Positions 10,262 through 52,347 of a stretch of 64,000 nucleotides of DNA are shown here, in pieces. The translations under genes and the position numbers were made by a program. Every line of letters begins with the position of its first letter. Position 1 is the first letter of the stretch. The stretch covers positions 24,213 through 88,212 of the forward strand of contig NZ_JBKEAA010000021.1 of the NCBI RefSeq assembly GCF_047971665.1, given 5' to 3'. Below the pieces are notes generated by a model, which ran no database searches, had not been told where the DNA came from, and saw only the letters and a program-made list of their open reading frames with translations. Source of the stretch: Castellaniella sp. Lineage in GTDB: Bacteria; Pseudomonadota; Gammaproteobacteria; Burkholderiales; Burkholderiaceae_B.

Positions 10262-11302
10262 TCAGCGGGACAGGCGGCCCCAGATGCGGATACGGCTGAT
10301 GCCGCCATCGGGGAACATGTTCACGCGCACATGCGAGACCGGGCCGACGGCCTGGATGGCATCACCTTCGTAGAAGTGCTGCTTGTCCATCTCGGTCTTC
10401 TGCTCGCCCAGCAGCACGGGCCAGAACATGGCCTGGGTCACCAGGGACTGGTCGGTCGATTCGGCCACCAGAGCGCCCTGCACCGACACGCGGTCGGGGT
10501 AGTTGCCCTTGAAGTGCGCCGTGTCGATTTCAATCTTTTGCACCTCGACGGGGTGGCCCAGTTCGAGGATCAGCCAATCATTGCCGGGCTCACGGCGGCG
10601 GCGGGTTTCCCAGCCATCGCCCATGTTGACGCCCCGGCCCGCCTTGATGACACAGGTCGGCATGCCGAAATGGGCGTCGCTGTAGGCGACGACGCGCCCG
10701 CCGCTGGCCAGGGCCGAAACCTCGTGCAACGCGTCCGGATCGCGCCGATTCCAATCGCAGGCAGGCTGGCCGTAGACGCGCAGGCGGGCCACTCCGCCAT
10801 CCGGGAAGATATTCACGCGCAGGTGCGTCCAGACCCGGTCATCCCCGATCTCGACGAAATGGTGGGAATGGCCTTGCAGGGATTTGGCCGCGACAATCTC
10901 CATCCACGGGGTCTTCGCGTCGGGCTCGCCTTCGCAGCAGGCCGCCTGAACGGAGGCCGCAGGTGGAAAATTGCCGGTGAAATGACTGGTGTTGATGTCC
11001 AGCCCCCTGATCGTGCCCGGCAGGCCCAGCTTGACGATGGCATGGTCGTGGCCGCCATTGCGGCGGCGGCGGGTTTCCCAGCCATCCATCCATTTGCCGT
11101 GATCATCGAACTTGCCGACGATGAAGACCGGCTCGGCATCCTGCAGCATGCGCTGCGCTGCGGCGAAAAACTCGTCGGAACAGGACAGCACCTTGGCGCC
11201 CAGGCTTTCGCTGGCGAGGTTCGGATGGCGGATGGCGAAGTCGGGCAGATCGACGGCGGGGGCATCGATGACGGTCCCGACGGGCAGATTGGATGAGGCC
11301 AT
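10262..11302 (-). CDS. alc: Allantoicase
   Basis: Two DGWETRRRR repeats, TxHFxGN, PDGGxxRxR. Confidence 0.96.
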
Positions 11303-11411
11303 GGAAATAAGCTCCGGATAGTCAGAGAAAGCCGCCGGGCCGAATCCTGGCGCCGGGCGGCGGGACCGGGCGTGAAGCCCGGTCGGGGGTTGGCAAGCCT
11401 CCCGCCTGGAA

Positions 11412-12341
11412 TCAGGCGGGCTGGCAGGGGTGCTCCTTGACCCAGTGACGGGCAATGTCGGCGCGGGTGGCGATCCAGACACGGTCATGTTTCTGGATAT
11501 GGTCCAGAAAGCGCTGCAAGCCGGCAAAACGTCCGGGCCGGCCAATCAGGCGGCAGTGCAGGCCGACCGACATCATCTTCGGCGTGGTCTCGCCTTCGGC
11601 GTAAAGCACATCGAAGGCATCGCGCAGATAGGTGAAGAAATGATCGGCGGTGTTGAAGCCCTGCGGCGAGGCAAAGCGCATGTCGTTCGTGTCCAGGGTA
11701 TAGGGCACGATGAGCTGGGGATGGGTCTTGCCGTTGCCCAGATCCACCTCGCTCCAGAACGGCAGGTCGTCGCCATAGTAGTCGGCGTCATACAGAAAAC
11801 AGCCTTCTTCGGCGACGATCCGCAAGGTGTTGGGGCTGTCGCGCCCGGTGTACCAGCCGTCGGGGTGGCGGCCCAGCAGCCGGGTGACGATCTCCACGCA
11901 GCGCTGAAAATGCTCGCGCTCGACTGCTTCGGACACGGACTGGTAGTGGATCCAGCGGTATCCATGGCAGGCAACCTCGTGGCCCAGTTCGACAAAAGCG
12001 CGCGCGACCTCGGGGTTGCGTTCCAGCGCCATGCCCACCCCGAACACCGTCAGCGGCAGACCGCGGCGCTCGAACTCGCGCAGAATGCGCCAGACTCCCG
12101 CGCGCGAGCCGTATTCGTAAATCGACTCCATCGACATGTGGCGCCCGGCGTAGGCCTCGGCGCCGATGATTTCGGACAGGAACTGTTCCGATCCCGCATC
12201 GCCGTGCAGGACGCAGTTCTCCCCGCCTTCTTCGTAGTTGATGACGAATTGCACCGCGACCCGGGCGCGGTCCGGCCAGTTGGCTTGCAGAGGGGTCCGG
12301 CCATAGCCGGCCATGTCCCGGGGATAGTGCTTGTCTGCCAT
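11412..12341 (-). CDS. puuE: Allantoinase PuuE (polysaccharide deacetylase fold)
   Basis: YPRDMx[42 protein letters not shown]. Confidence 0.96.
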
Positions 12342-39597: not shown

Positions 39598-42500
39598 TTA
39601 TCTGATGGTCGTCACGGGTTCAGGCTCGGGTTCTCGTGTCACAGCCACCGGAATCTCTTCGACCTTGGGGTCGTCCCAGTCGCCTGTGATCCGATAGCGC
39701 ACCGACATGCTCCTGGCCAACGGCTCCTTCAGCAGCCATTGGGTCACGAAGGCACCCAGGCCGATCAGCGGATTGATGGCGATTCCGGCTGCCAGTGCCG
39801 CCCCGCTGACATCCAGATTGGGCACGACAACAGCCTGCAGGGCCAGGGTGCTGTTGACGATGTTCGTGTCGCCTTCGAGCAGAATGGTACCCACCGGCCC
39901 GATCACTTTGTAGTCGTGAACCTTCACCTGTCCACGATCCATGTCCAGTTTTCCGCGCAACTGATCAAAAGGGAAACCGTCCTTGGACAAGCCGGACAGG
40001 CCGCTGTCGAGCTTTGTCAGCCGGGTAATGGACTGCAGCGACAGGAATTCCAGCAGTTTGGCCGAACGCGAGCCCAGTTTCTGGAACCGTCCCTGATCCA
40101 GTTCGATCTCCAGAGTGCCGCTCAGATTCGCCTTTTCGCGCGTCCAGGGCAGATCGTCCCAGCGGAACCGGCCCTTGAGCGCGCCCTTGCCGCCGGACAT
40201 GACGTCCTGCCATCCGGCCCGCTGCATCCAGGCGCCAAGGTTGACCGCCTGGACCGAGGCAGTCAACGCCAGGCCGCGATCCGCGCCACGCAGCCGCCAG
40301 AGGCCCGAGCCGCGCAGATAGGCATTCTTGTCGCCCAGGCGCAGGTCGTTGAGCATCCAGACATGGCGGACGCCGTCGCGCACGCCTTCGAGCGCCAGAG
40401 CCCCCAGGGAGCGGCCATACAATCGCAGCTCATCGGCCCGCAGGTCGATGCCCGGAATCTCGAGATCGTCATCGAAAGAAGCCTCCTCGTCGGGCTCGGC
40501 GTCAGGCAGCAAGGACTGAAAGTTCGCCGGATCATCCCCCAGGCTCAAGCGGGAGAAACGGGCCTCCATCCTGCCCACCACGCGGCCATCGCGTTCCTGC
40601 CATTTGAGAGTGCCGCTGGTCTGTTTCGACTGCAATTGCGTCGACCAGCGCTCATCGGGCGTGCGGGAGGCTCGCAGCACCGCCTGATCCAGGCGGGTTC
40701 CGAACAACCGCAACTGGTCGGCCCGGGCATTCAGCTGGCGCAGGTCCGGCAGCAGCAGCCGTGCCGCGGGACGCCGCGAGCTGGCGCCGCGTCTGCGGAT
40801 GGAAAACTCATCGACGATCTGGTTCCACAGGTCCAGGTCGAACAGCGGATAGCCCACCTCGACCCGCAGGCCGTCCGCGCGAGCGTCGGCGGCAAGCCCG
40901 ATCCCGATTCCGGCACCCTGAAAATAAGGTCCTTTGCGGGTTTTCCGGTCATGCCGCAGGGCGAGACGCAGCGCATCTCCATACTGCGCCTCCAGCCGAT
41001 CCGCGCTGGAATCGGCATCCGTCCACTGCACATGCAGAGGCCGGGCCTGCCGGGCGGACTTGGCCAGCGGCGCGGGAAAATCCAGTCCCAGCCCCCGGGT
41101 ATCCGAATCCAGCACGAAAACCGTATGGCGGCCCTGCATCCTGACCGTGGCGCGATAGTCCAACGCACCGGTGATCCGCCGCATCCCCGGCACATCCAGA
41201 TAATTCGCCAGCGCCCGGGCGCCGATCCGGCCCCGCAGCGCCAGGCCGGTGTCTTTTTCCCCGCCCAGGCTGCCATCGATGCGCACCTTGCCACCGAGCA
41301 GCTGTGCGCTCAACGGCTGTGCAATCCGCACGCCCTGTTCGCTGAAATACAGTTGCCCGTCGATGTCGTCGAAGACGGGCGCATGCGGCAAAAACCGCAA
41401 ACTGCCCTGGCGCAGATCCACACGCCCCTGGACCCGGGTATCCTCACTGTGCAGCAGCGGGATGGTCAGAGACAGCGGCACGGCCCAATAGCCGCCGGCC
41501 TGCGCCTCATCGAACACCCCCTCGAGCATCTCGGCCAGGGGCGAATGCCGGATCAGCGACATATAGGTTTTCCCCGAAGCGAGGGTCTGGCCGGACACTT
41601 GCAGGGTGGCATTATGCTCCAGGTCGGGAATCCGCGCCTTCAGCCCGGACAGGGCGATCTCGAGCCCCGGCTCGGGGCGCATGCGCGCGGTGGAGGCCGT
41701 CAGCCTCAGGTCCGTGCGATGCAGGTCGGCCGTGCCCGTGACGTTCTCCAGCAAGGGCCAGACATCCGCCGGCCTGGCCCCGGGCACGAACTCGATGCGC
41801 GCCTCACGAAAAGCGCCCTGAATACGAAAATCCCCCGCCTGCGGCCGCTCTCCAAAGGGGAACGCCTCCAGGTCGCCTTGCAACCGCCAGTGCGCATTGA
41901 CGACTTCACCGGCATGCAACCCGCCCGCCAGCCAATCCCGGGCATCCGGATTGACCTCGAGGGGCAAGTAGCGATGAATGGCGCCCAGGCGGGCGCGGGC
42001 AATCGTGCCCTGGAAATCGGCCTTGCCGGCCAGACCGCCGGACTGCCAGGCGCCCGCGCCCTGCAAGTCGATATCGGCATTGCGCCAACTCAGCTCATCC
42101 AGCTTCAGCGCCCAGGCGCCGGTGTGCCGCAGACGGCCACGCGCGGCCAGACGCCCCGGAGACAGGGATTGAGCGAACACCGCCGGCATGGTCACTTGCC
42201 CGCCCTCGATGCGGAACTGCACCTCCAGGCCGTCCGGCATCGGATCGCCCTGCGCCAGCGCCTGCCATTGATCCAGAAAGCCCTCGGCCCAGACACCCGC
42301 CTCGGGCATATCGAGCGACAGACCGGCACGGTCCGACCAGCGAACGTCATCGGTCTCCAGCAGCAGCGTCAGACGAGGCCGGTCATCCCGGGTCTGCACC
42401 CAGGCCTGCGCCCGCCCCCGGCCTTGTTGCAAGGCGCACGGCATATCCACCCAGGTTCGCCAGACCTGCGACCGGACCGGACCGACCTGCAGCCAGGCCT

Positions 42501-43209
42501 GCCAGTCCGAAGGCAGGCGCCCCTGCGCCAGCGTGTCGGGATCGGCCAGCCGCGCACGCAAATCCAGCCGGGCATCCCCCCCATCCAGCACCCGCGCACT
42601 GAACGAGACGCCCAGGGCGCCATGATCCTGCGCCAGGAGCACCTGGACATCGTCCAGGCGCAACTCGGGCGCCACGCGCATCCGATCCACCCAGCGCACC
42701 GTCGTATCGTGAATGGTGATCCTGGGTTGAGCCAGCAGCCAGCGCACCGCAGGCAGATCGGCCGAGCCTTGCGCGCCGGTCAGGCCAAAGGTCTGCCCCA
42801 GCAGGCTGAGCCGGCCATCCGGCAGGCGCTCGAGCGTCAGATCCATCCCCTCGACCCGCAGGTCCAGCAGCCCTCGGCCGCCCGGCAGCAGGGCCCGCCA
42901 ATCCAGCCGCGCACGCGCATCCGGTATGGTCAACAGCGTGCGCCCGTCATCGGCCCGCAAACGGACATCCCGCACCTCGAACTCCGGGTTCCAGCCATGC
43001 CAGCGAATCTCGATGGGCCCCAGCTCGACCAGCGTGCCCAAGGCGGTGGACAGTTGCGCGGCAATGCGTGGGCGCCAGCCATCGATCTGCGGCAACACGG
43101 CATAGCGCAAGACCAGCAAGGCGATTCCGATGCAGAAATACAGGACGACTGCGACCGCGAGAAGTCGGCGACCCCAGGTAGAACCATGGCGTGAAATGGT
43201 TTGGCGCAT
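39598..43209 (-). CDS. yhdP: YhdP (AsmA-like) phospholipid transport protein
   Basis: 1203 aa, N-terminal TM, beta-rich, C-terminal NP..GLG..YxITGxWDDP; divergent from glnE. Confidence 0.9.
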   Translation of the reverse strand: MRQTISRHGSTWGRRLLAVAVVLYFCIGIALLVLRYAVLPQIDGWRPRIAAQLSTALGTLVELGPIEIRWHGWNPEFEVRDVRLRADDGRTLLTIPDARARLDWRALLPGGRGLLDLRVEGMDLTLERLPDGRLSLLGQTFGLTGAQGSADLPAVRWLLAQPRITIHDTTVRWVDRMRVAPELRLDDVQVLLAQDHGALGVSFSARVLDGGDARLDLRARLADPDTLAQGRLPSDWQAWLQVGPVRSQVWRTWVDMPCALQQGRGRAQAWVQTRDDRPRLTLLLETDDVRWSDRAGLSLDMPEAGVWAEGFLDQWQALAQGDPMPDGLEVQFRIEGGQVTMPAVFAQSLSPGRLAARGRLRHTGAWALKLDELSWRNADIDLQGAGAWQSGGLAGKADFQGTIARARLGAIHRYLPLEVNPDARDWLAGGLHAGEVVNAHWRLQGDLEAFPFGERPQAGDFRIQGAFREARIEFVPGARPADVWPLLENVTGTADLHRTDLRLTASTARMRPEPGLEIALSGLKARIPDLEHNATLQVSGQTLASGKTYMSLIRHSPLAEMLEGVFDEAQAGGYWAVPLSLTIPLLHSEDTRVQGRVDLRQGSLRFLPHAPVFDDIDGQLYFSEQGVRIAQPLSAQLLGGKVRIDGSLGGEKDTGLALRGRIGARALANYLDVPGMRRITGALDYRATVRMQGRHTVFVLDSDTRGLGLDFPAPLAKSARQARPLHVQWTDADSSADRLEAQYGDALRLALRHDRKTRKGPYFQGAGIGIGLAADARADGLRVEVGYPLFDLDLWNQIVDEFSIRRRGASSRRPAARLLLPDLRQLNARADQLRLFGTRLDQAVLRASRTPDERWSTQLQSKQTSGTLKWQERDGRVVGRMEARFSRLSLGDDPANFQSLLPDAEPDEEASFDDDLEIPGIDLRADELRLYGRSLGALALEGVRDGVRHVWMLNDLRLGDKNAYLRGSGLWRLRGADRGLALTASVQAVNLGAWMQRAGWQDVMSGGKGALKGRFRWDDLPWTREKANLSGTLEIELDQGRFQKLGSRSAKLLEFLSLQSITRLTKLDSGLSGLSKDGFPFDQLRGKLDMDRGQVKVHDYKVIGPVGTILLEGDTNIVNSTLALQAVVVPNLDVSGAALAAGIAINPLIGLGAFVTQWLLKEPLARSMSVRYRITGDWDDPKVEEIPVAVTREPEPEPVTTIR

Positions 43210-43279: not shown

Positions 43280-46033
43280 ATGTCCGAGACCATTATATTC
43301 AAGCCCGCCCAGCAATGGTCCGGCGCCCTGCGGCGCTACCTCACAGCCCATCCCGATCTGGAGGAGCGCCTGGCGGCCGATGCCGACCGGCCCGTCACCC
43401 GCAAGACGCTGACCGACTGGTATGCCGACCTGCTCGGCCCCGACACGCTCCGCCCCGTTCCCCAGCCCGACCTGCGGCGCGCCCTGCGCCGGCTGCGGGC
43501 CCGGGTCTTCGCCACGCTGATGGTGCGCGACAGCGCCGGGCTGGCCCCCCTGCACGAAGTCGTGTCGGCCATGTCGCATCTGGCCGATCTGGCCGTGAGC
43601 GAGGCCTATGCCTGCGCCATGCATACCCTGATGGCGATCCACGGGATGCCCCGCCACCCGGACACCGGCGCGCCCCAGGACATGCTGATCCTGGGCATGG
43701 GCAAGCTGGGCGGCAAAGAACTGAACGTCTCGTCGGACATCGACCTGATCATGCTGTACGACGAGGAAGGCGAAACCGACGGACGCAAGCGCATCAGCCA
43801 TCACGAGTTCTATGGCAAGGTCTGCCGGCTGATGATGCCGATCCTGTCCGAGCCCGATGCCGACGGCATCGTCTTTCGCACCGACCTGCGCCTGCGCCCG
43901 GATGGCGACAGCGGACCACTGGCCTGGAGCCTCGCCGCCCTGGAGAACTATCTGGTCGTCCAGGGCCGCGAATGGGAACGCTACGCCTGGCTCAAGGCCC
44001 GACTGATCCCCTGCCCGCTGTTCGATGAGGCGGCCTTCGCCGCCCAGGCGCGCAACATGGAATCCCTGCGCCAGCCCTTTGTCTACCGCAAATATTTCGA
44101 TTTCGACGCGCTGGCGGCGTTGCGCGGCCTGCGCGAACGCATCCGTACGGACTGGCAGCGCCGCGCCCAGGCCCGCAAAGGGCTGGACACCCGCCACAAC
44201 ATCAAACTGGGCGAAGGCGGCATCCGCGAAATCGAGTTCGTCATTCAGCTCAATCAACTGATCCGGGCGGGCCGCCAGCCCTCCCTGCAACAGCGCAATC
44301 TGCTGGCGGCTCTGCACAAGCAGCGCCGCGCCGGCATCCTGAACGACGACCAGGCAGCCGGCCTGGAGGCGGCCTACATCCACCTGCGGCGGGTCGAGCA
44401 CATGCTGCAATACCGCGAGGACGAACAGACCCATCTGCTGCCTCGCACCGACGAAGGCATGGCGGCGCTGGCCCGCGCCATGGGTCACGCCGACACGGCC
44501 GGATTCCTGACGGAACTGGAACAGCACCGCGCATGCGTCTCGCAATGCTTTCGCGATGCCTTTCGCATCGCCGGCATGGGCGGCGACACCCAGGAGCCGG
44601 CCCCTTCCCAGGAAGGCTCCCCCGCCGAACCGTTGCCGGACACCCTGGCCGACACCATGCAGCCACGCATCGACGCGCTGCTCGACAGCCACCGGGTCCG
44701 CAGCCTGCCGCGCTCCAGCCTGAAACGCCTGCACGCCCTGCTGCCGGGCCTGACCCGGGCGGCGGCCCGCACGGACAATCCGCCCGTTGCGCTGCAACGC
44801 CTGCTCAGCTTGGTCGAAAACATCGCCCAGCGCAGCGCCTACCTGGCCCTGCTGGCCGAATACCCGGAGACCCTCGCCCGGGTGGCGCGTATCGTCCAGG
44901 CCAGTCCCTGGGCCTCGGAATATCTGACCCGCTATCCTCTGCTGCTCGACAGCCTGATCGAATGGCGCAGCCTGATGCAGGCGCCCGATTTTCAGACCCT
45001 GGCCGAGCAATTGCGCAGCGACCTGGACGCCTGCCTGCTGCCCGACGGTCAGCCGGATGTGGAACAGCAGATGAACCTGATGCGCGACGTCCAGCATCAG
45101 ATCACCTTCCAGCTCCTGGCCCAGGATCTGGAAAACGTCATCAGCGTCGAAGGACTGGCCGACCTCCTGTCGGCCCTGGCCGACCTGATGCTGGCCGAGG
45201 CCATCCGCCGGGTCTGGCCCCAGGTGCTGCCTCGTGAACGCCGGGCCGATCCCGGCGAACCGCGCTTTGCCATCATTGCCTATGGCAAGCTGGGCGGCAA
45301 GGAGATCGGCTACGCCTCGGACCTGGATCTGGTCTTCCTCTATGACGATCCGGACCAGGAGGCCAGCGAACGCTACGCCAAACTGGGCCGCCGGGTCGCC
45401 TCCTGGCTGTCCACCCTGACTTCGTCGGGCCGGCTGTACGAGATCGACCTGCGCCTGCGCCCGGACGGCGACGCCGGGCTGCTGGCCCTGCCGATCGACG
45501 CCTTCGAGCACTACCAGCTGGCGCAGGCCTGGCCCTGGGAGCACCAGGCTCTGACCCGGGCGCGCTTCGTGGCCGGCGACCCGGCCATCGGCGCCCGATT
45601 CGAGGACATCCGCCAGCGCATCCTGCTGCTGCCGCGCGACCCCGAGGCCCTGCGCCAGGAGGTCCGCTCCATGCGGGACAAGATTTCCCAGGGACACCCC
45701 AACCGCAGCGGCGACTTTGATCTGAAACACGACCGGGGCGGCATGGTGGATATCGAGTTCATCACGCAGTTCCTAGTGCTCAGCCAGTCCGGCGCGCATC
45801 CCGAGCTGCTGGGCAACCTGGGCAACATCGCCCTGCTGGGGCTGGCGGCCCGCGCCGGCCTGATCCCCGGCCCATTGGCCGCCGAGGCCGCGGATGCCTA
45901 CCGCGTCTTTCGCCGTCGCCAGCACAAATTGCGCCTCCAGGGCGCCGACAAGGCGCGCATCCCGCAGACGGAGTTCAAACGCGAGCGCGAAGCCGTGGGC
46001 GAACTCTGGGAATACGTACTGGGCACCGCCTGA
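43280..46033 (+). CDS. glnE: Glutamine synthetase adenylyltransferase/removing enzyme
   Basis: Two NT domains GKLGGxE..SDx[10 protein letters not shown] twice, K..GGxxxIEF twice. Confidence 0.97.
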
Positions 46034-46165
46034 GCCGCGCCATGGGTTGAGCGTCCCCCACGCCCGCCCTGCCTCCAATCCCCGGCGGATTCTGCCTGAC
46101 GCAGTCGATTCGTTCTCCCCCTGCCATCGCGGCGCCGCGCATGCGCGCCATCCATGAAAACAAGG

Positions 46166-46211
46166 TTTACAAATCGCCAATCTATCGCTATATTGTAATA
46201 TATATAACGAA
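46166..46211 (+). promoter_or_regulatory. Sigma70 promoter overlapped by a ModE-like operator
   Basis: TTTACA(46166-71)-N17-TATATT(46189-94); palindrome atCGCTATAT-N8-ATATAACGa (core 46186-46209). Confidence 0.8.
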
Positions 46212-46248
46212 AAAAACGGATCGACACTCATGTTCACTTCGGTACACC

Positions 46249-47007
46249 ATGGAATTCAATCAAAGCGAACAGGTCTACCTGATCGGTATCGACGATACCG
46301 ATAATCTCTACACGCCCGGGACCGGTCGCCATGCTCGTCAATTGGGCGCCCGGCTGATGCGCGAAGGCGCCGTGCGCCTGCTCGATATCACCCGCCACCA
46401 ACTTCTGTTTGACCCCCGGGTCCGCTATACCTCCCACAACAGCTCCCTCTGCATGCGCGTGGTGATCGCAACGTGTCAGCCCGAGGCCGCCGCGTCGATT
46501 TGCCGCGACTACCTGTTGACACACAGCGCGCCAGATTCGGATGCCGGCCTGTGCATCGCTGCGTGGCATGCGGTGCCACCGGCCATTCAGAGGTATGGCC
46601 GGCGCGCCAAGCAGGAACTCCTGGACATCGATCAGGCCCGCGCCACCGCACAGCAGCACACCATCCAGCTCGAAGGCCTGACGGGCGATCACGGCGGCAT
46701 CATCGGCGCGCTGGCGGCCGTCGGCCTGCGGCGTACAGGTATGGACGGCCGCATCGCCTGGCTGCCCAATCTGCGCGAAACCACCGGCGTGGTGACGGCA
46801 GGCCATCTGCGCCAATCCGCCGGCATCGACCTCATCCGCGAATACCAAGGCAATGCGACGGTTGCCGAGGACGACCTCATCGATGCGGGGCGGTGGCCCA
46901 GGCCCATCCTGCAAGAGGATCAAGCTGTATTACTGATCGAAAAAGGAGGCCCCGACCATGGCGTTCAGTGGAAGCCCGTATCCAAGCAAGTACTCAGACA
47001 GTTCTGA
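46249..47007 (+). CDS. Stand-alone TiaS N-terminal (kinase)-like 'IGIDDTD' protein, function unknown
   Basis: LIGIDDTD..GTG, RHQL, YTSHNSS, SDAGLC, GIIGALAAVG resemble TiaS catalytic-domain motifs; 252 aa, too short to include the OB and Zn-ribbon tRNA-binding domains. Confidence 0.75.
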   Translation: MEFNQSEQVYLIGIDDTDNLYTPGTGRHARQLGARLMREGAVRLLDITRHQLLFDPRVRYTSHNSSLCMRVVIATCQPEAAASICRDYLLTHSAPDSDAGLCIAAWHAVPPAIQRYGRRAKQELLDIDQARATAQQHTIQLEGLTGDHGGIIGALAAVGLRRTGMDGRIAWLPNLRETTGVVTAGHLRQSAGIDLIREYQGNATVAEDDLIDAGRWPRPILQEDQAVLLIEKGGPDHGVQWKPVSKQVLRQF

Positions 47008-47509
47008 TCGCGCGCCGGCGCGCTGGCCGGCGTTTATCTTCTGCGCGGGCATCGGCATGGCGCTCGTGCTGGCGGAACAATGGCTGCGCCTGCCCTTGCA
47101 CTTGCCGGGCTGGCGAGGAGGAATCACTATCGCCTTGCTGGTGGCCGCGCACCGTCTGGGACCTCCGGCATTCGCCTGCGCGGGCGCGGCCGCCGTTGCC
47201 CTGGCCTTCAGCGTCAGCCTCGGCAGCGCCTTGTTGCCAGGCGTATTCCATTATCTGCTGCCCGCGCTCGTGCTCGACCTGTGCCTGCGGCGTCCACGTC
47301 CCGGCATCCTGGGCGCTGCCCTGGTGGGCGGCCTGGCCAATATCGCGCGGCTGCTACCCGTCCTCGCCGGCAGCCGGGTTCCAGGGGTCAGCGACGGCAT
47401 GCTCTGGTTCCCCTTCTCCACACACTTTCTGTCCGGCGCCTGCGGCGGCCTGATCGCAAGCCTGGCGCTGCATTTCCTGCACACACAAAAGCACGGGCCG
47501 CATTCATGA
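46958..47509 (+). CDS. Small polytopic membrane protein, ECF S-component-like
   Basis: AAAGGAGG RBS; 183 aa with about 5-6 hydrophobic segments; LHLPGWRG loop; overlaps both neighbours. Confidence 0.65.
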   Translation: MAFSGSPYPSKYSDSSDRAPARWPAFIFCAGIGMALVLAEQWLRLPLHLPGWRGGITIALLVAAHRLGPPAFACAGAAAVALAFSVSLGSALLPGVFHYLLPALVLDLCLRRPRPGILGAALVGGLANIARLLPVLAGSRVPGVSDGMLWFPFSTHFLSGACGGLIASLALHFLHTQKHGPHS

Positions 47510-49569
47510 AGCCCTCCTCCGTCAGCCTGCTGGCGGGCGCCTCCGCGCTCGCTGCCTCCTCGCTCGCCCTCGCCGCAGTCACAGATGCGCCGAACAACCC
47601 GCCCTATACCCTCGGTTCAGTCGTGGTGCATGCCAATGCGGCACAAACCGCCGGCGAGAATGTCGAATCCGTCGATGCCGGACTGATCGATGAACTCGGT
47701 GCGCGGACGCTCAACGAGGCGCTGCGCACCACGCCAGGACTCACTATCAATCCTGGCGCGCAAGGCATTCCACGGATCATGATGCGCGGCCTGCCGCCAC
47801 GCCAGACCCAGTTGTACCTGAATGGCGTGCCGCTGAACGCGGCCTCCGACGGACAGTTCGACCCCTCGCTGATCGCCACCGAACCCATCGCCAGGATCGA
47901 CGTCCTGGAGGGCGCCAGCTCCGTACTCTACGGCCCAGGCACCAACGCCGGGGTCATCAACGTGATCACGCAACGCGGCGCGCAGGGCCTGCATGGCGGG
48001 GCCGGCGTGGAAATCGGCTCGGGCCACTCGCGCCGTGTCACCGGCGACTTGTCCGGCGGCAACGACAGTGCCGATTTCCTGATCAGTGCCAGCCATACGC
48101 GCAGCGATGGCTATCCCGTGCCTGACGAGGGCCTGCGCGCCAACAGCGATGCGCGGCGGTCGAATTTCTTTGCCAACGTCGGCCTGCGTCTGGGCGACTG
48201 GCGAATCGGCCTGACCGGAACGGCCGTCGAAGGCCATGAGGGCCTGCCACCGAACACCATTGCCTCCACCGCCTCGAATGTCTACACCAATGGCCAGCAG
48301 TTTCAACGGCTGAACGATATTTCAGGCCAATCACTCCAGATCGACGCGGCCTATACCCCGGCCAACCCGCTGAGCTTGCGCTTGAGCGGCTACCTCAATC
48401 ATCTGTACACGGTGCGGGACCGGTATGACGACGAAAACTATTCAAGCATGGCGGACCCGAAAGTCCAGACCTATCACCAGGTCGATGACATGACGGTTAG
48501 TGGCGGCCGTGCGCAAATGGAGTATGACTTCGGCGCCGCCGGCCGCCTGACCGGGGCATTCAGCTTCCGCCAGGAACAGGACGAACTGACCGGCTTCATC
48601 CGGAACATCTCCATTGCGGGCGCCGCCGGCAGTAGTGGTGGTGGCGGAGGCGGCGGCGGTGGCGGCGGTGGCGGCGGTGGCGGCGGTGGCGGCGGTGGCG
48701 GCGGCGGCGGCGGCGGCGGTGGCGGCCAGGGATATGCGTTCGGCGATCTCGACCAGCGCCACACGGCGCGTACCTACTCGACCGCGCTCGAATATCAGGT
48801 CAACCCGACCCGACGGCTGCGCCTGACGGCCGGTCTGAGCCATGAAATTTTCGATACCGCTTCGGTGCGGCACAACGGCACGCAATGGATGTTGGGCGCG
48901 ACCTACGATCTCACCCCCCAGGTCCAGCCCTACCTCTCCTATTCACGCAAAATCCGCTTCCCGACGCTCGATCAATTGTTCGACCCGGTACAGGGCAACC
49001 CGCACCTTGCGCCCGAACGCTCCACCAATCTGGAGGGCGGGATTGTCTGGGCCCCCTCGACGACCAGCCGCATCAGGGTCGGCGGATTCAACAACCGCAT
49101 CGACCATTTCATCCAGAACGACCGGTCATCGCAACAATATTTCAATAGCGACGTCATCAGCCGTGGTTTCCAGATCAGCGGCGCCTTCAAACCTGTCCGG
49201 ACCGTGACGGTCCGCGCCGGCTATACCTTGATGGACATCTATTCCCGACAGACCGATACCCGCCAGAATTACCGGCCAAAACAGGTGCTGAGCCTGAGCG
49301 CAGCCTGGCGCTTCCTGCCGACATGGCGTCTGTCGGGCGACCTGTACGGCCAATTCGGCGGCATCGTGACGAGCCGCGTGAACGCAGCCGACCAGGTCGA
49401 TTTCGGCAATTACGTGCTGGCCAACATGCAGATTCAAAAATCCTTCCCGGCCTATGGCGCCCGCGTCTACCTGCGGGTGAACAACCTGTTCGACCACGCA
49501 TACGAATACGCCGTCGGTTACCCGGCGCGAGGCCGTGAAATATTCGTGGGCGCCAGTTTCCGGTTCTGA
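47506..49569 (+). CDS. TonB-dependent outer-membrane receptor
   Basis: Signal peptide, TonB-box-like SVVVHA, plug (EAL..PG, MRG, RIDVLEGASSVLYG..GVINVIT), GNPHLAPE, NLFD, C-terminal Phe. Confidence 0.95.
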   Translation: MKPSSVSLLAGASALAASSLALAAVTDAPNNPPYTLGSVVVHANAAQTAGENVESVDAGLIDELGARTLNEALRTTPGLTINPGAQGIPRIMMRGLPPRQTQLYLNGVPLNAASDGQFDPSLIATEPIARIDVLEGASSVLYGPGTNAGVINVITQRGAQGLHGGAGVEIGSGHSRRVTGDLSGGNDSADFLISASHTRSDGYPVPDEGLRANSDARRSNFFANVGLRLGDWRIGLTGTAVEGHEGLPPNTIASTASNVYTNGQQFQRLNDISGQSLQIDAAYTPANPLSLRLSGYLNHLYTVRDRYDDENYSSMADPKVQTYHQVDDMTVSGGRAQMEYDFGAAGRLTGAFSFRQEQDELTGFIRNISIAGAAGSSGGGGGGGGGGGGGGGGGGGGGGGGGGGGGGQGYAFGDLDQRHTARTYSTALEYQVNPTRRLRLTAGLSHEIFDTASVRHNGTQWMLGATYDLTPQVQPYLSYSRKIRFPTLDQLFDPVQGNPHLAPERSTNLEGGIVWAPSTTSRIRVGGFNNRIDHFIQNDRSSQQYFNSDVISRGFQISGAFKPVRTVTVRAGYTLMDIYSRQTDTRQNYRPKQVLSLSAAWRFLPTWRLSGDLYGQFGGIVTSRVNAADQVDFGNYVLANMQIQKSFPAYGARVYLRVNNLFDHAYEYAVGYPARGREIFVGASFRF
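48637..48726 (+). repeat. In-frame (GGN)30 tract incl. (GGCGGCGGT)5, encoding 30 Gly
   Basis: Read directly from the sequence, inside the TBDR barrel region. Confidence 0.95.
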
Positions 49570-49671
49570 GTCTCTTCATCCGCACCGGACCGCACCGCCC
49601 CCGGTTCGTTTTACTATGTCACGGACCACGCAAACCGACCTGCTCTCGGAACGGACGCGTCCCCGGCCCAT

Positions 49672-49717
49672 GCAAACCGACCGCCGCACCTATGAACGGG
49701 CGAGGCGGCCGGTTTGC
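49672..49717. terminator. Hairpin between convergent TBDR and clpB
   Basis: GCAAACCGACCGCC pairs with GGCGGCCGGTTTGC (one mismatch); no clear U tract. Confidence 0.4.
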
Positions 49718-49755
49718 GCCGTCCGGCAAGCAATGGAACCGGACGAAACGGGCGT

Positions 49756-52347
<2,592 letters not shown>

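Follow-up and report, generated by a model that had tools for sequence, protein, structure and literature searches.

The window analysed here is a 64,000-nucleotide stretch of a Castellaniella sp. genome (assembly GCF_047971665.1, contig NZ_JBKEAA010000021.1, positions 24,213 to 88,212), and the system in question is a set of three co-oriented genes, termed A, B and C, that the open reading frame (ORF) listing of the window places between glnE and clpB. In order, they encode a protein with the kinase core of TiaS, an inner-membrane protein with the fold of an energy-coupling factor (ECF) S-component, and a TonB-dependent outer-membrane receptor. The whole is read as an acquired, ModE-repressed operon that would scavenge molybdenum (Mo) or tungsten (W) under scarcity, and the probability of this reading is put at about 55%. 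Both the link to Mo/W starvation and the predicted membership of the operon in the ModE regulon are well supported, the latter because its palindrome ranks first genome-wide with the sites of both modA genes next, ModE is encoded, and boxes of the same type recur in related loci.

Enzymes that depend on Mo or W drive nitrogen fixation, the turnover of nitrate and nitrite and the conversion of formate and CO2, and both the acquisition of these metals at nanomolar concentrations and their passage across the outer membrane are only partly understood. The locus points to a widespread A-B module within Mo/W regulons, with thousands of homologues, whose Gram-negative versions go together with a dedicated receptor that has an unusual loop of poly-glycine. 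This module offers concrete genes for probing high-affinity acquisition of Mo, W or a cofactor. To our knowledge, the TiaS-type kinase has so far been known only from archaeal tRNA modification; it is possible that the fold has a second biological role, and there is a fair chance that an S-component-like carrier coupled to a TiaS-type enzyme represents a new mechanism. The full-text literature searched held no description of the A-B pair or of a ModE-regulated TonB receptor of this type.

The promoter-like site of the operon and its putative ModE operator

A perfect 8+8 palindrome, CGCTATAT-N8-ATATAACG, lies at 46186-46209 and is a putative ModE operator; in its full form, CGCTATATTGTAATATATATAACG, it occurs once in the window against 0.01 matches expected. 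A sigma-70 consensus scan recovered a single promoter-like site within 45900-49900, TTTACA-17-TATATT on the forward strand at 46166-46194, which scores 10/12 and is a consensus match only. Its -10 element (TATATT, 46189-46194) sits inside the left half-site of the palindrome, as a preliminary description of this DNA had claimed.

That description had also equated the palindrome with the ModE operator, and the distribution of the pattern in the genome (2.83 Mb in 43 contigs, 64.7% GC, 91.7% complete) argues for the same identification. A search with CGNTATAT-N8-ATATANCG at up to three mismatches returned 21 sites, 18 of which have three mismatches. The operon palindrome is the sole site without a mismatch, the sole one-mismatch site (C13:16691) closely precedes a second modA gene (82.2 bits, over the cut-off of 62.5), and the sole two-mismatch site (C3:8744) precedes the modA of a modA/modB cluster by approximately 160 bp. 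Convergent to this cluster, and adjoining modABC, is the gene for a full-length ModE of 297 aa with a helix-turn-helix (HTH; HTH_1) and two TOBE stretches. In vivo, ModE would presumably repress the operon.

Boxes of the same type are also present in related genomes. Among 558 confirmed genomic relatives of A, the best 80 loci were kept for neighbourhood counts, and across these loci there are 10 ModE-like boxes with no more than two mismatches. Five are located within 175 nt upstream of gene A, in Nitrobacter (L008), an alphaproteobacterial metagenome-assembled genome (MAG; L025), Methylophilaceae (L039), Methylophaga (L071) and Oxalicibacterium (L081), four are located between gene B and the receptor gene (L039, L067, L068 and L071), and one is in another position (L033). 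Boxes upstream of A or of the receptor recur in this way in alpha-, beta- and gammaproteobacterial loci. The possibility raised in the preliminary description, that operons of this kind carry a riboswitch instead of a ModE box, finds no counterpart in the regions scanned with Rfam: no riboswitch of any family, cobalamin included, was detected in 45500-50000, and none in 12 related loci, including the molybdenum cofactor (Moco) riboswitch RF01055, which occurs elsewhere in 13 of 50 genomes.

Two further features of the genome touch on ModE. The second modA paralogue (C13:15899-16690) has, besides its own ModE box, an adjoining permease-like ORF, and a second, weaker ModE-like HTH (38.5 bits) is encoded at C18:158172-158417, near a 959-aa molybdopterin oxidoreductase.

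The three proteins and their gene neighbourhoods

Gene A (46249-47007, forward strand) encodes 252 aa, composed of a TiaS-type kinase core and a C-terminal beta-rich domain. The model of the protein (pLDDT 88.9) aligns with TiaS (3amt_A) at Z 21.4 and an rmsd of 1.9 Å over 151 residues with 21% identity, Foldseek matches it to TiaS at E 1e-9, and the A-family profile finds TiaS chains in the PDB at E 1e-9 to 3e-7, while Pfam barely detects it (TiaS_TCKD, 14.9 bits). The TCKD fold spans approximately residues 7-166 and the TiaS matches cover only the first 150-165 residues; the C-terminal domain (~85 aa, approximately residues 170-252) has an invariant W216 and R218 in a WPRP motif. Residues D15, D16, T17, D18 and T25 are invariant in the family alignment, the first four aligning with the DDTD of TiaS and T25 with TiaS Thr18, which we take to be the autophosphorylated threonine. 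The earlier identification of A as a TiaS-like kinase is upheld by these structure, Foldseek and profile matches, and the motifs named with it (IGIDDTD, YTSHNS and LPGxxG) proved invariant or nearly so in the family alignments. A would presumably be an active enzyme.

In comparison with TiaS, the archaeal tRNA(Ile2) 2-agmatinylcytidine synthetase (PDB 3AMT, 3U02), A has the same kinase-domain fold and has kept the DDTD, PY-T-N and G-IGALAAVG motifs together with the threonine aligned to Thr18. Unlike TiaS, it is bacterial, its gene is apparently translationally coupled to that of a membrane protein, and it occurs in Mo/W uptake clusters. A is not itself a TiaS, because its 252 aa include neither the OB fold nor the zinc ribbon with which TiaS holds the tRNA; its score against the TiaS (tRNA agmatidine synthetase) equivalog is 22.6 bits, with a cut-off of 600. 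An assignment to methanogenesis marker protein 11 (TIGR03280), on which the full-text literature searched held no paper, was likewise rejected at 44.8 bits versus 255.8, the match being confined to profile positions 136-283, in the C-terminal half of the marker.

Gene B (46958-47509, forward strand) encodes a six-helix inner-membrane protein of 183 aa without any Pfam or NCBIfam family match, and its homologues are all annotated as 'hypothetical' and have no Pfam domain, with the exception of one unrelated PF12399 match. Its assignment to the S-component fold rests on VIA-align. When the model (pLDDT 86.5, six helices) was compared with 48,161 chains, ranks 1-14 were all ECF S-components (Z 8.3-15.3), led by the YkoE-type 5edl (Z 15.3, rmsd 3.3 Å, 164 residues) and including ThiT, RibU, FolT, PanT, BioY, NikM and BtuM, with the first unrelated chain at Z 7.7; Foldseek returned zero matches for the same model at E <= 0.001. 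The ranking agrees with the ECF-S-like character proposed for B from its sequence. Across the family G33, P50, G51, G54 and D107 are invariant and H156 nearly so, and an LPG(H/W/R)(H/R/Q)G motif, written LPGxxG above, marks the junction of loop 1 and helix 2.

B shares the six-helix fold with the ECF S-components, but it belongs to no described sequence family and is marked by invariant LPGxxG and Asp motifs of its own; it is coupled to an enzyme of the TiaS type in place of EcfAA'T, and it is apparently controlled by ModE and not by a riboswitch. It presumably works without a classical ECF module, because EcfT (PF02361) was not found in this 91.7% complete genome; nor were EcfT, EcfA or EcfA' genes among the recurrent neighbours of the related loci, where the ABC genes nearby are Tup/Mod-like. 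The solitary S-component BtuM works with the TonB-dependent receptor BtuB, and the present layout of a small S-type protein and an outer-membrane receptor, in a genome where EcfT was not found, is similar. No fused form of B was seen among longer proteins, which is weak evidence, and a prediction of the A + B complex (scores of 0.16 and 0.00 where the mark is 0.32) was used neither for nor against an interaction.

Gene C (47506-49569, forward strand) encodes a receptor of 687 aa with a signal peptide, a plug (Pfam Plug, 78.4 bits) and a 22-strand-type barrel (TonB_dep_Rec_b-barrel, 121.8 bits). The plug and barrel are common to BtuB and other small TonB-dependent receptors, and BtuB is the closest solved chain (E 1.5e-18). 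C differs from BtuB, however, in that its scores fall far below the B12-receptor cut-offs (140 bits versus 599.7 for TonB-B12, its best NCBIfam match, and 111 versus 836), no cobalamin riboswitch was found in 45500-50000, and it has a conserved glycine-rich tract; a role as the vitamin B12 receptor was rejected on the scores and the riboswitch result.

The tract consists of 30 consecutive glycines (residues 378-407, 48637-48726 on the forward strand) and is a hallmark of the family. A glycine-rich tract is present at the same alignment position in 11 of 12 aligned receptor homologues, in 10 of them as an unbroken run of 8-22 Gly and in one (L007) as a Gly-rich stretch with interruptions, and the tract-bearing homologues span the alpha-, beta- and gammaproteobacteria and the Gemmatimonadales. 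Runs of at least eight Gly occur in 21 of 50 receptor-cluster ORFs, the remainder being mostly fragments or of the Bacteroidota type, and relatives with tracts of 8-26 Gly include L013, L015, L018, L025, L032, L035, L038, L058, L072, L081 and others. The receptors of the Bacteroidota have no glycine tract and are instead preceded by the gene for a lipoprotein, u6. As the tract begins just before the stretch aligned to BtuB residue 324, a region that we tentatively assume to be near an extracellular loop, it may form an extracellular loop for ligand capture. We know of no described TonB-dependent receptor with a glycine tract of this kind.

The A family has 3571 matches at E <= 0.001, all of them unnamed or 'hypothetical', and its carriers include the Pseudomonadota, Bacteroidota, Chloroflexota, Cyanobacteria, Acidobacteriota and other phyla. 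When neighbour clusters were built from naive ORFs of the 80 loci, A was present in 78, a B-like ORF in 72 and a receptor in 49, and B almost always overlaps the 3' end of A (in L082 the two are 2.7 kb apart). At least one independent Mo/W marker is present in 40 of the 80 loci. A TupA-like binding protein occurs in 16 loci (231.6 bits to TupA, its sole family match), a TupB/ModB-like permease in 14, an ABC ATPase in 14, a regulator combining an HTH with PF12727 in 15 (223 bits to the C-terminal domain of a MoeA-fusion protein) and a small ModE-N regulator in nine (68-95 bits to ModE_repress). The A-B pair stands at the end of a formate-dehydrogenase-like operon in seven loci, following genes for a TorD-type chaperone, a 961-aa catalytic subunit, a 4Fe-4S subunit and a cytochrome b.

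Gene order varies with lineage. The Anaerolineae have regulator, u5, A, B, tupA, tupB and tupC, the Bacteroidota have modE-N, A, B, u6 and receptor, and the methylotrophic beta- and gammaproteobacteria have modE-N, A, B and receptor followed by binding-protein genes. A Pseudomonadales MAG (L078) groups four genes, for the receptor, A, B and a binding protein, ahead of unrelated genes. In the Methylophilaceae locus L039 the gene for an anion porin of the phosphate-selective porin family (Porin_O_P; 10376-11884) stands directly after the receptor and between two oxyanion-type binding-protein genes, and the genes after A in L077 encode a lipoprotein with three repeats and then a WtpA that scores over its cut-off. 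Two MAGs, from the Thermoflexales and Ardenticatenaceae (L009 and L036), have no adjacent gene B; the gene right after A in L009 encodes a homologue of the molybdenum-storage-protein beta subunit (904-1731; E 3.7e-76 to 2OGX_B), and a similar gene lies beside A in L036 (8109-8933). The preliminary description had proposed a Mo/W link for the whole module and a neighbourhood analysis to probe it, and that analysis has strengthened the proposal: homologues of A co-occur with the LPGxxG protein, the receptor, ModE boxes and recurrent Tup/Wtp, ModE-type, formate-dehydrogenase and Mo-storage neighbours.

Two lipoproteins belong to these neighbourhoods. In 17 loci of the Chloroflexota, u5 precedes A (directly upstream in loci including L011, L021, L029, L048 and L049), and the sequences inspected have a lipobox Cys and a Sec-type signal with no twin-arginine motif. 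Its mature domain (~100 aa) aligns throughout with the Moco-binding domain of sulfite-oxidase-family proteins, at an hhalign probability of 52% and a P of 1.4e-4 over 96 columns, where reversed and unrelated controls gave P 0.2-0.6. Pfam Oxidored_molyb is detected in two of the 17 members (E 0.18), and for a 504-aa relative with three repeats (L077:6793-8304) the match to soxC has an E of 4.7e-8 and that to the u5 profile an E of 7e-9. The u5 sequences are gapped where the cysteine loop of the enzymes aligns, and against PDB sequences the u5 profile matched in the signal-peptide region only. The domain occurs alone, as three repeats (~500 aa) or fused to TupA-like binding proteins (L053, L082 and L083), in all cases within Mo/W uptake clusters of the Chloroflexota and other phyla. 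The u5 lipoprotein may bind a pterin or act as an accessory to oxyanion capture. The u6 lipoprotein (~310 aa), the gene for which lies directly before the Bacteroidota receptor gene in 16 loci, has zero matches to Pfam, NCBIfam or PDB profiles.

Proposed mechanism, likely cargo and rival explanations

The proposed mechanism would start with ModE, which at sufficient molybdate or tungstate would bind the palindrome over the -10 element and shut the promoter. When the metal is scarce, the three genes would be expressed, and C, powered by TonB, would take a scarce Mo or W species across the outer membrane into the periplasm, from where B would move it on through the inner membrane with no classical ECF module to energise the step. 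In the cytoplasm, the ATP spent by A would serve for chemical trapping or activation of the cargo or, alternatively, for driving B. TiaS-type enzymes form AMP and PPi. Transport, its direction and its cargo would all follow this scheme, with the oxyanion itself (molybdate or tungstate), free or in a simple complex, as the most likely cargo and a pterin cofactor as a less likely one; the oxyanion is favoured because oxyanion-type binding proteins, a porin and oxyanion-sensing regulators surround the module.

Parts of this scheme have precedents. The ModABC, TupABC and WtpABC importers appear to share a regulon with the operon in this genome and gene clusters with the module elsewhere, but A, B and C are not homologous to their components, and the operon would add an outer-membrane step and a kinase-like enzyme. 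As an arrangement of receptor and S-component it resembles the BtuB-BtuM-type route, here placed under a metal regulator. Uptake of the PnuC-NadR type, in which facilitated entry is combined with trapping by a cytoplasmic kinase, likewise pairs the gene for a small membrane carrier with that for a cytoplasmic ATP-using enzyme, although A and B are unrelated to both proteins and trapping by A would be an analogy.

Several observations weigh against a scavenging operon of this kind. In the Anaerolineae the A-B pair shares an operon with a complete TupABC, next to which a second oxyanion importer looks redundant, and this apparent redundancy points to a different cargo or to a role other than transport. 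The chemistry of the TiaS kinase domain, which we take to be phosphorylation of a base carbonyl, suggests no obvious reaction with molybdate. An S-component fold, here that of a predicted model, would prove no function on its own, and we know of no characterised S-component that carries an oxyanion. The ModE of this genome scores 97.5 bits against ModE_repress, just below the cut-off of 98.5. Finally, 37 of the 80 loci are without an independent Mo/W marker in their 6-kb flanks, several of them being incomplete at the ends.

A more specific version of the scavenging operon is held only tentatively, at odds well short of even. The A-B pair would be a novel type of inner-membrane uptake device in which a solitary S-component-like carrier is paired with a TiaS-type enzyme instead of ABC ATPases, the enzyme driving transport or trapping the cargo chemically, and C would be the first dedicated outer-membrane gate for Mo or W, in which the poly-Gly tract would offer the oxyanion a 'nest' of backbone amides. 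If true, the TiaS kinase fold would for the first time be seen to act outside tRNA modification. In its boldest version the cargo would be the pterin cofactor of Mo or W, and the three genes would constitute the first bacterial Moco uptake system.

The preliminary description, all of whose observed features were confirmed and whose interpretation is supported in part, had come close to this boldest version. It argued that molybdate should not need a TonB-dependent receptor, a weak argument given that such receptors are known for small ions (Ni, Zn and Cu), and it named Moco or molybdopterin, re-phosphorylated or activated by A, as a candidate cargo beside a molybdophore complex; the specific pterin cargo and its re-phosphorylation are not supported as stated in view of the genome's own Moco genes, the lack of a Moco riboswitch in the loci scanned and the oxyanion-binding neighbours. 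In its general form, cofactor salvage would have C and B import Moco, the tungsten cofactor, molybdopterin or cyclic pyranopterin monophosphate (cPMP), which A would phosphorylate or activate, and it is considered unlikely. Of the S-components that B matches, nearly all transport vitamins or cofactors and two transport metal ions, the closest solved receptor to C is BtuB, the u6 lipoprotein encoded before the receptor in the Bacteroidota is one that we take to resemble cofactor-capture lipoproteins, and the A-B pair ends formate-dehydrogenase operons. Against this, the genome makes its own Moco, as it encodes moaA, moeA and four molybdopterin oxidoreductases, and so would not depend on salvage; RF01055, present in 13 of the 50 genomes, was not detected in any of the 12 scanned loci; it is the oxyanion that the regulators sense; and Moco is very labile outside proteins. 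The resemblance of u5 to the Moco-binding domain of sulfite oxidase counts in favour of salvage, but u5 lacks the cysteine-loop segment and occurs in fusions with TupA-like oxyanion-binding proteins as well. Similarly, the match of A to the pterin pyrophosphokinase HPPK is weak and non-specific (Z 6.3-7.0), a level that many ferredoxin-like folds reach equally.

That the A-B pair is no importer, and acts at the inner membrane in Mo/W storage, metal discrimination, cofactor maturation or signalling while C is merely co-regulated, is judged distinctly unlikely. The S-component fold of B speaks against it, and so does the close association of A-B with the receptor gene, seen in 49 of the 80 loci, with ModE-like boxes placed ahead of both units. 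The occurrence of A beside Mo-storage-protein genes without B (L009 and L036) would fit such a role, as would operons that already hold complete TupABC or Wtp transporters and the threonine, presumably of the autophosphorylation type, that A has kept.

Import of a metallophore is regarded as very unlikely. C would take up a complex of Mo or W with a chelator (a catecholate or other 'molybdophore'), B would bring it in, and A would modify the chelator to free the metal. TonB-dependent receptors classically import metal chelates, control by ModE fits, and the carriers include organisms of high Mo demand (Bradyrhizobium, Nitrobacter, Beijerinckia and heterocystous cyanobacteria). Yet genes for chelator biosynthesis are not among the recurrent neighbours of the 80 loci, the A-B pair occurs without any receptor in the Chloroflexota and others, and the 126 bits of C in the siderophore-receptor subfamily of NCBIfam remain under the cut-off of 223.5.

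It can hardly be credited that the palindrome is a chance or unrelated match and that the operon imports a cargo other than Mo or W, such as a vitamin: the best family matches of C are indeed B12 receptors and B looks like a vitamin S-component, but the genome-wide rank of the palindrome with both modA sites next to it, the lack of riboswitches in 45500-50000 and in the 12 loci scanned, and the Mo/W neighbours of 40 of the 80 loci all speak against it.

Gene starts, gene order and origin of the operon

The start of gene A is most likely the ATG at 46249, giving a predicted protein that begins MEFNQSEQVYLIGIDDTDN, because the N-termini of its closest homologues agree with this start and a longer ORF from 46141 crosses the promoter. 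Gene B is taken to start at the ATG at 46958, because its homologues begin within one to two residues of this position; a strong Shine-Dalgarno sequence read from the DNA, AAGGAGG (46943-46949, forward strand), lies inside gene A, 8 nt ahead of the ATG. An alternative start of B at residue 34 is called in public collections and was rejected, as the protein would then lose part of its first predicted transmembrane helix (H22-42). Genes A and B overlap by 50 nt, and B and C overlap in an ATGA, the ATG of C lying over the TGA of B, so that the overlaps described earlier are reproduced by the ORF coordinates; the three genes are apparently translationally coupled.

The left neighbour of the operon is glnE (43280-46033, forward strand) and the right neighbour is clpB (49756-52347, reverse strand). 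The junction between them (46034-49755 of the window) was compared in five genomes (G036, G061, G062, G064 and G066). Among these congeners, the gap between glnE and clpB measures 80 and 116 bp in two genomes, 746 bp in a third, and approximately 9 and 16.7 kb in two more. Gene A was found in none of 33 other genomes of the genus and in none of 60 other genomes of the family. An insertion between glnE and clpB had been proposed in the preliminary description, and the short gaps of the two congeners, together with the failure to find gene A in the 33 genomes, confirm it. Given the variable junction, the 3.7-kb operon is taken to be an acquired island and is, to judge by gene order and distribution, horizontally acquired. 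In base composition the island does not clearly stand out: its GC content ranges from 0.575 to 0.705, against a genome value of 0.647, with AT-richness confined to the promoter region, so that composition speaks neither for nor against a recent transfer.

Two minor features flank the locus. In the spacer between gene C and clpB, Rfam gives a match to the Hfq-regulated sRNA Hrs13 (49670-49756, reverse strand) at 21.4 bits, with a gathering threshold of 52 and an E of 0.052, which is probably due to chance. Upstream of glnE, on the opposite strand, lies an ORF of 1203 aa (39598-43209, reverse strand).

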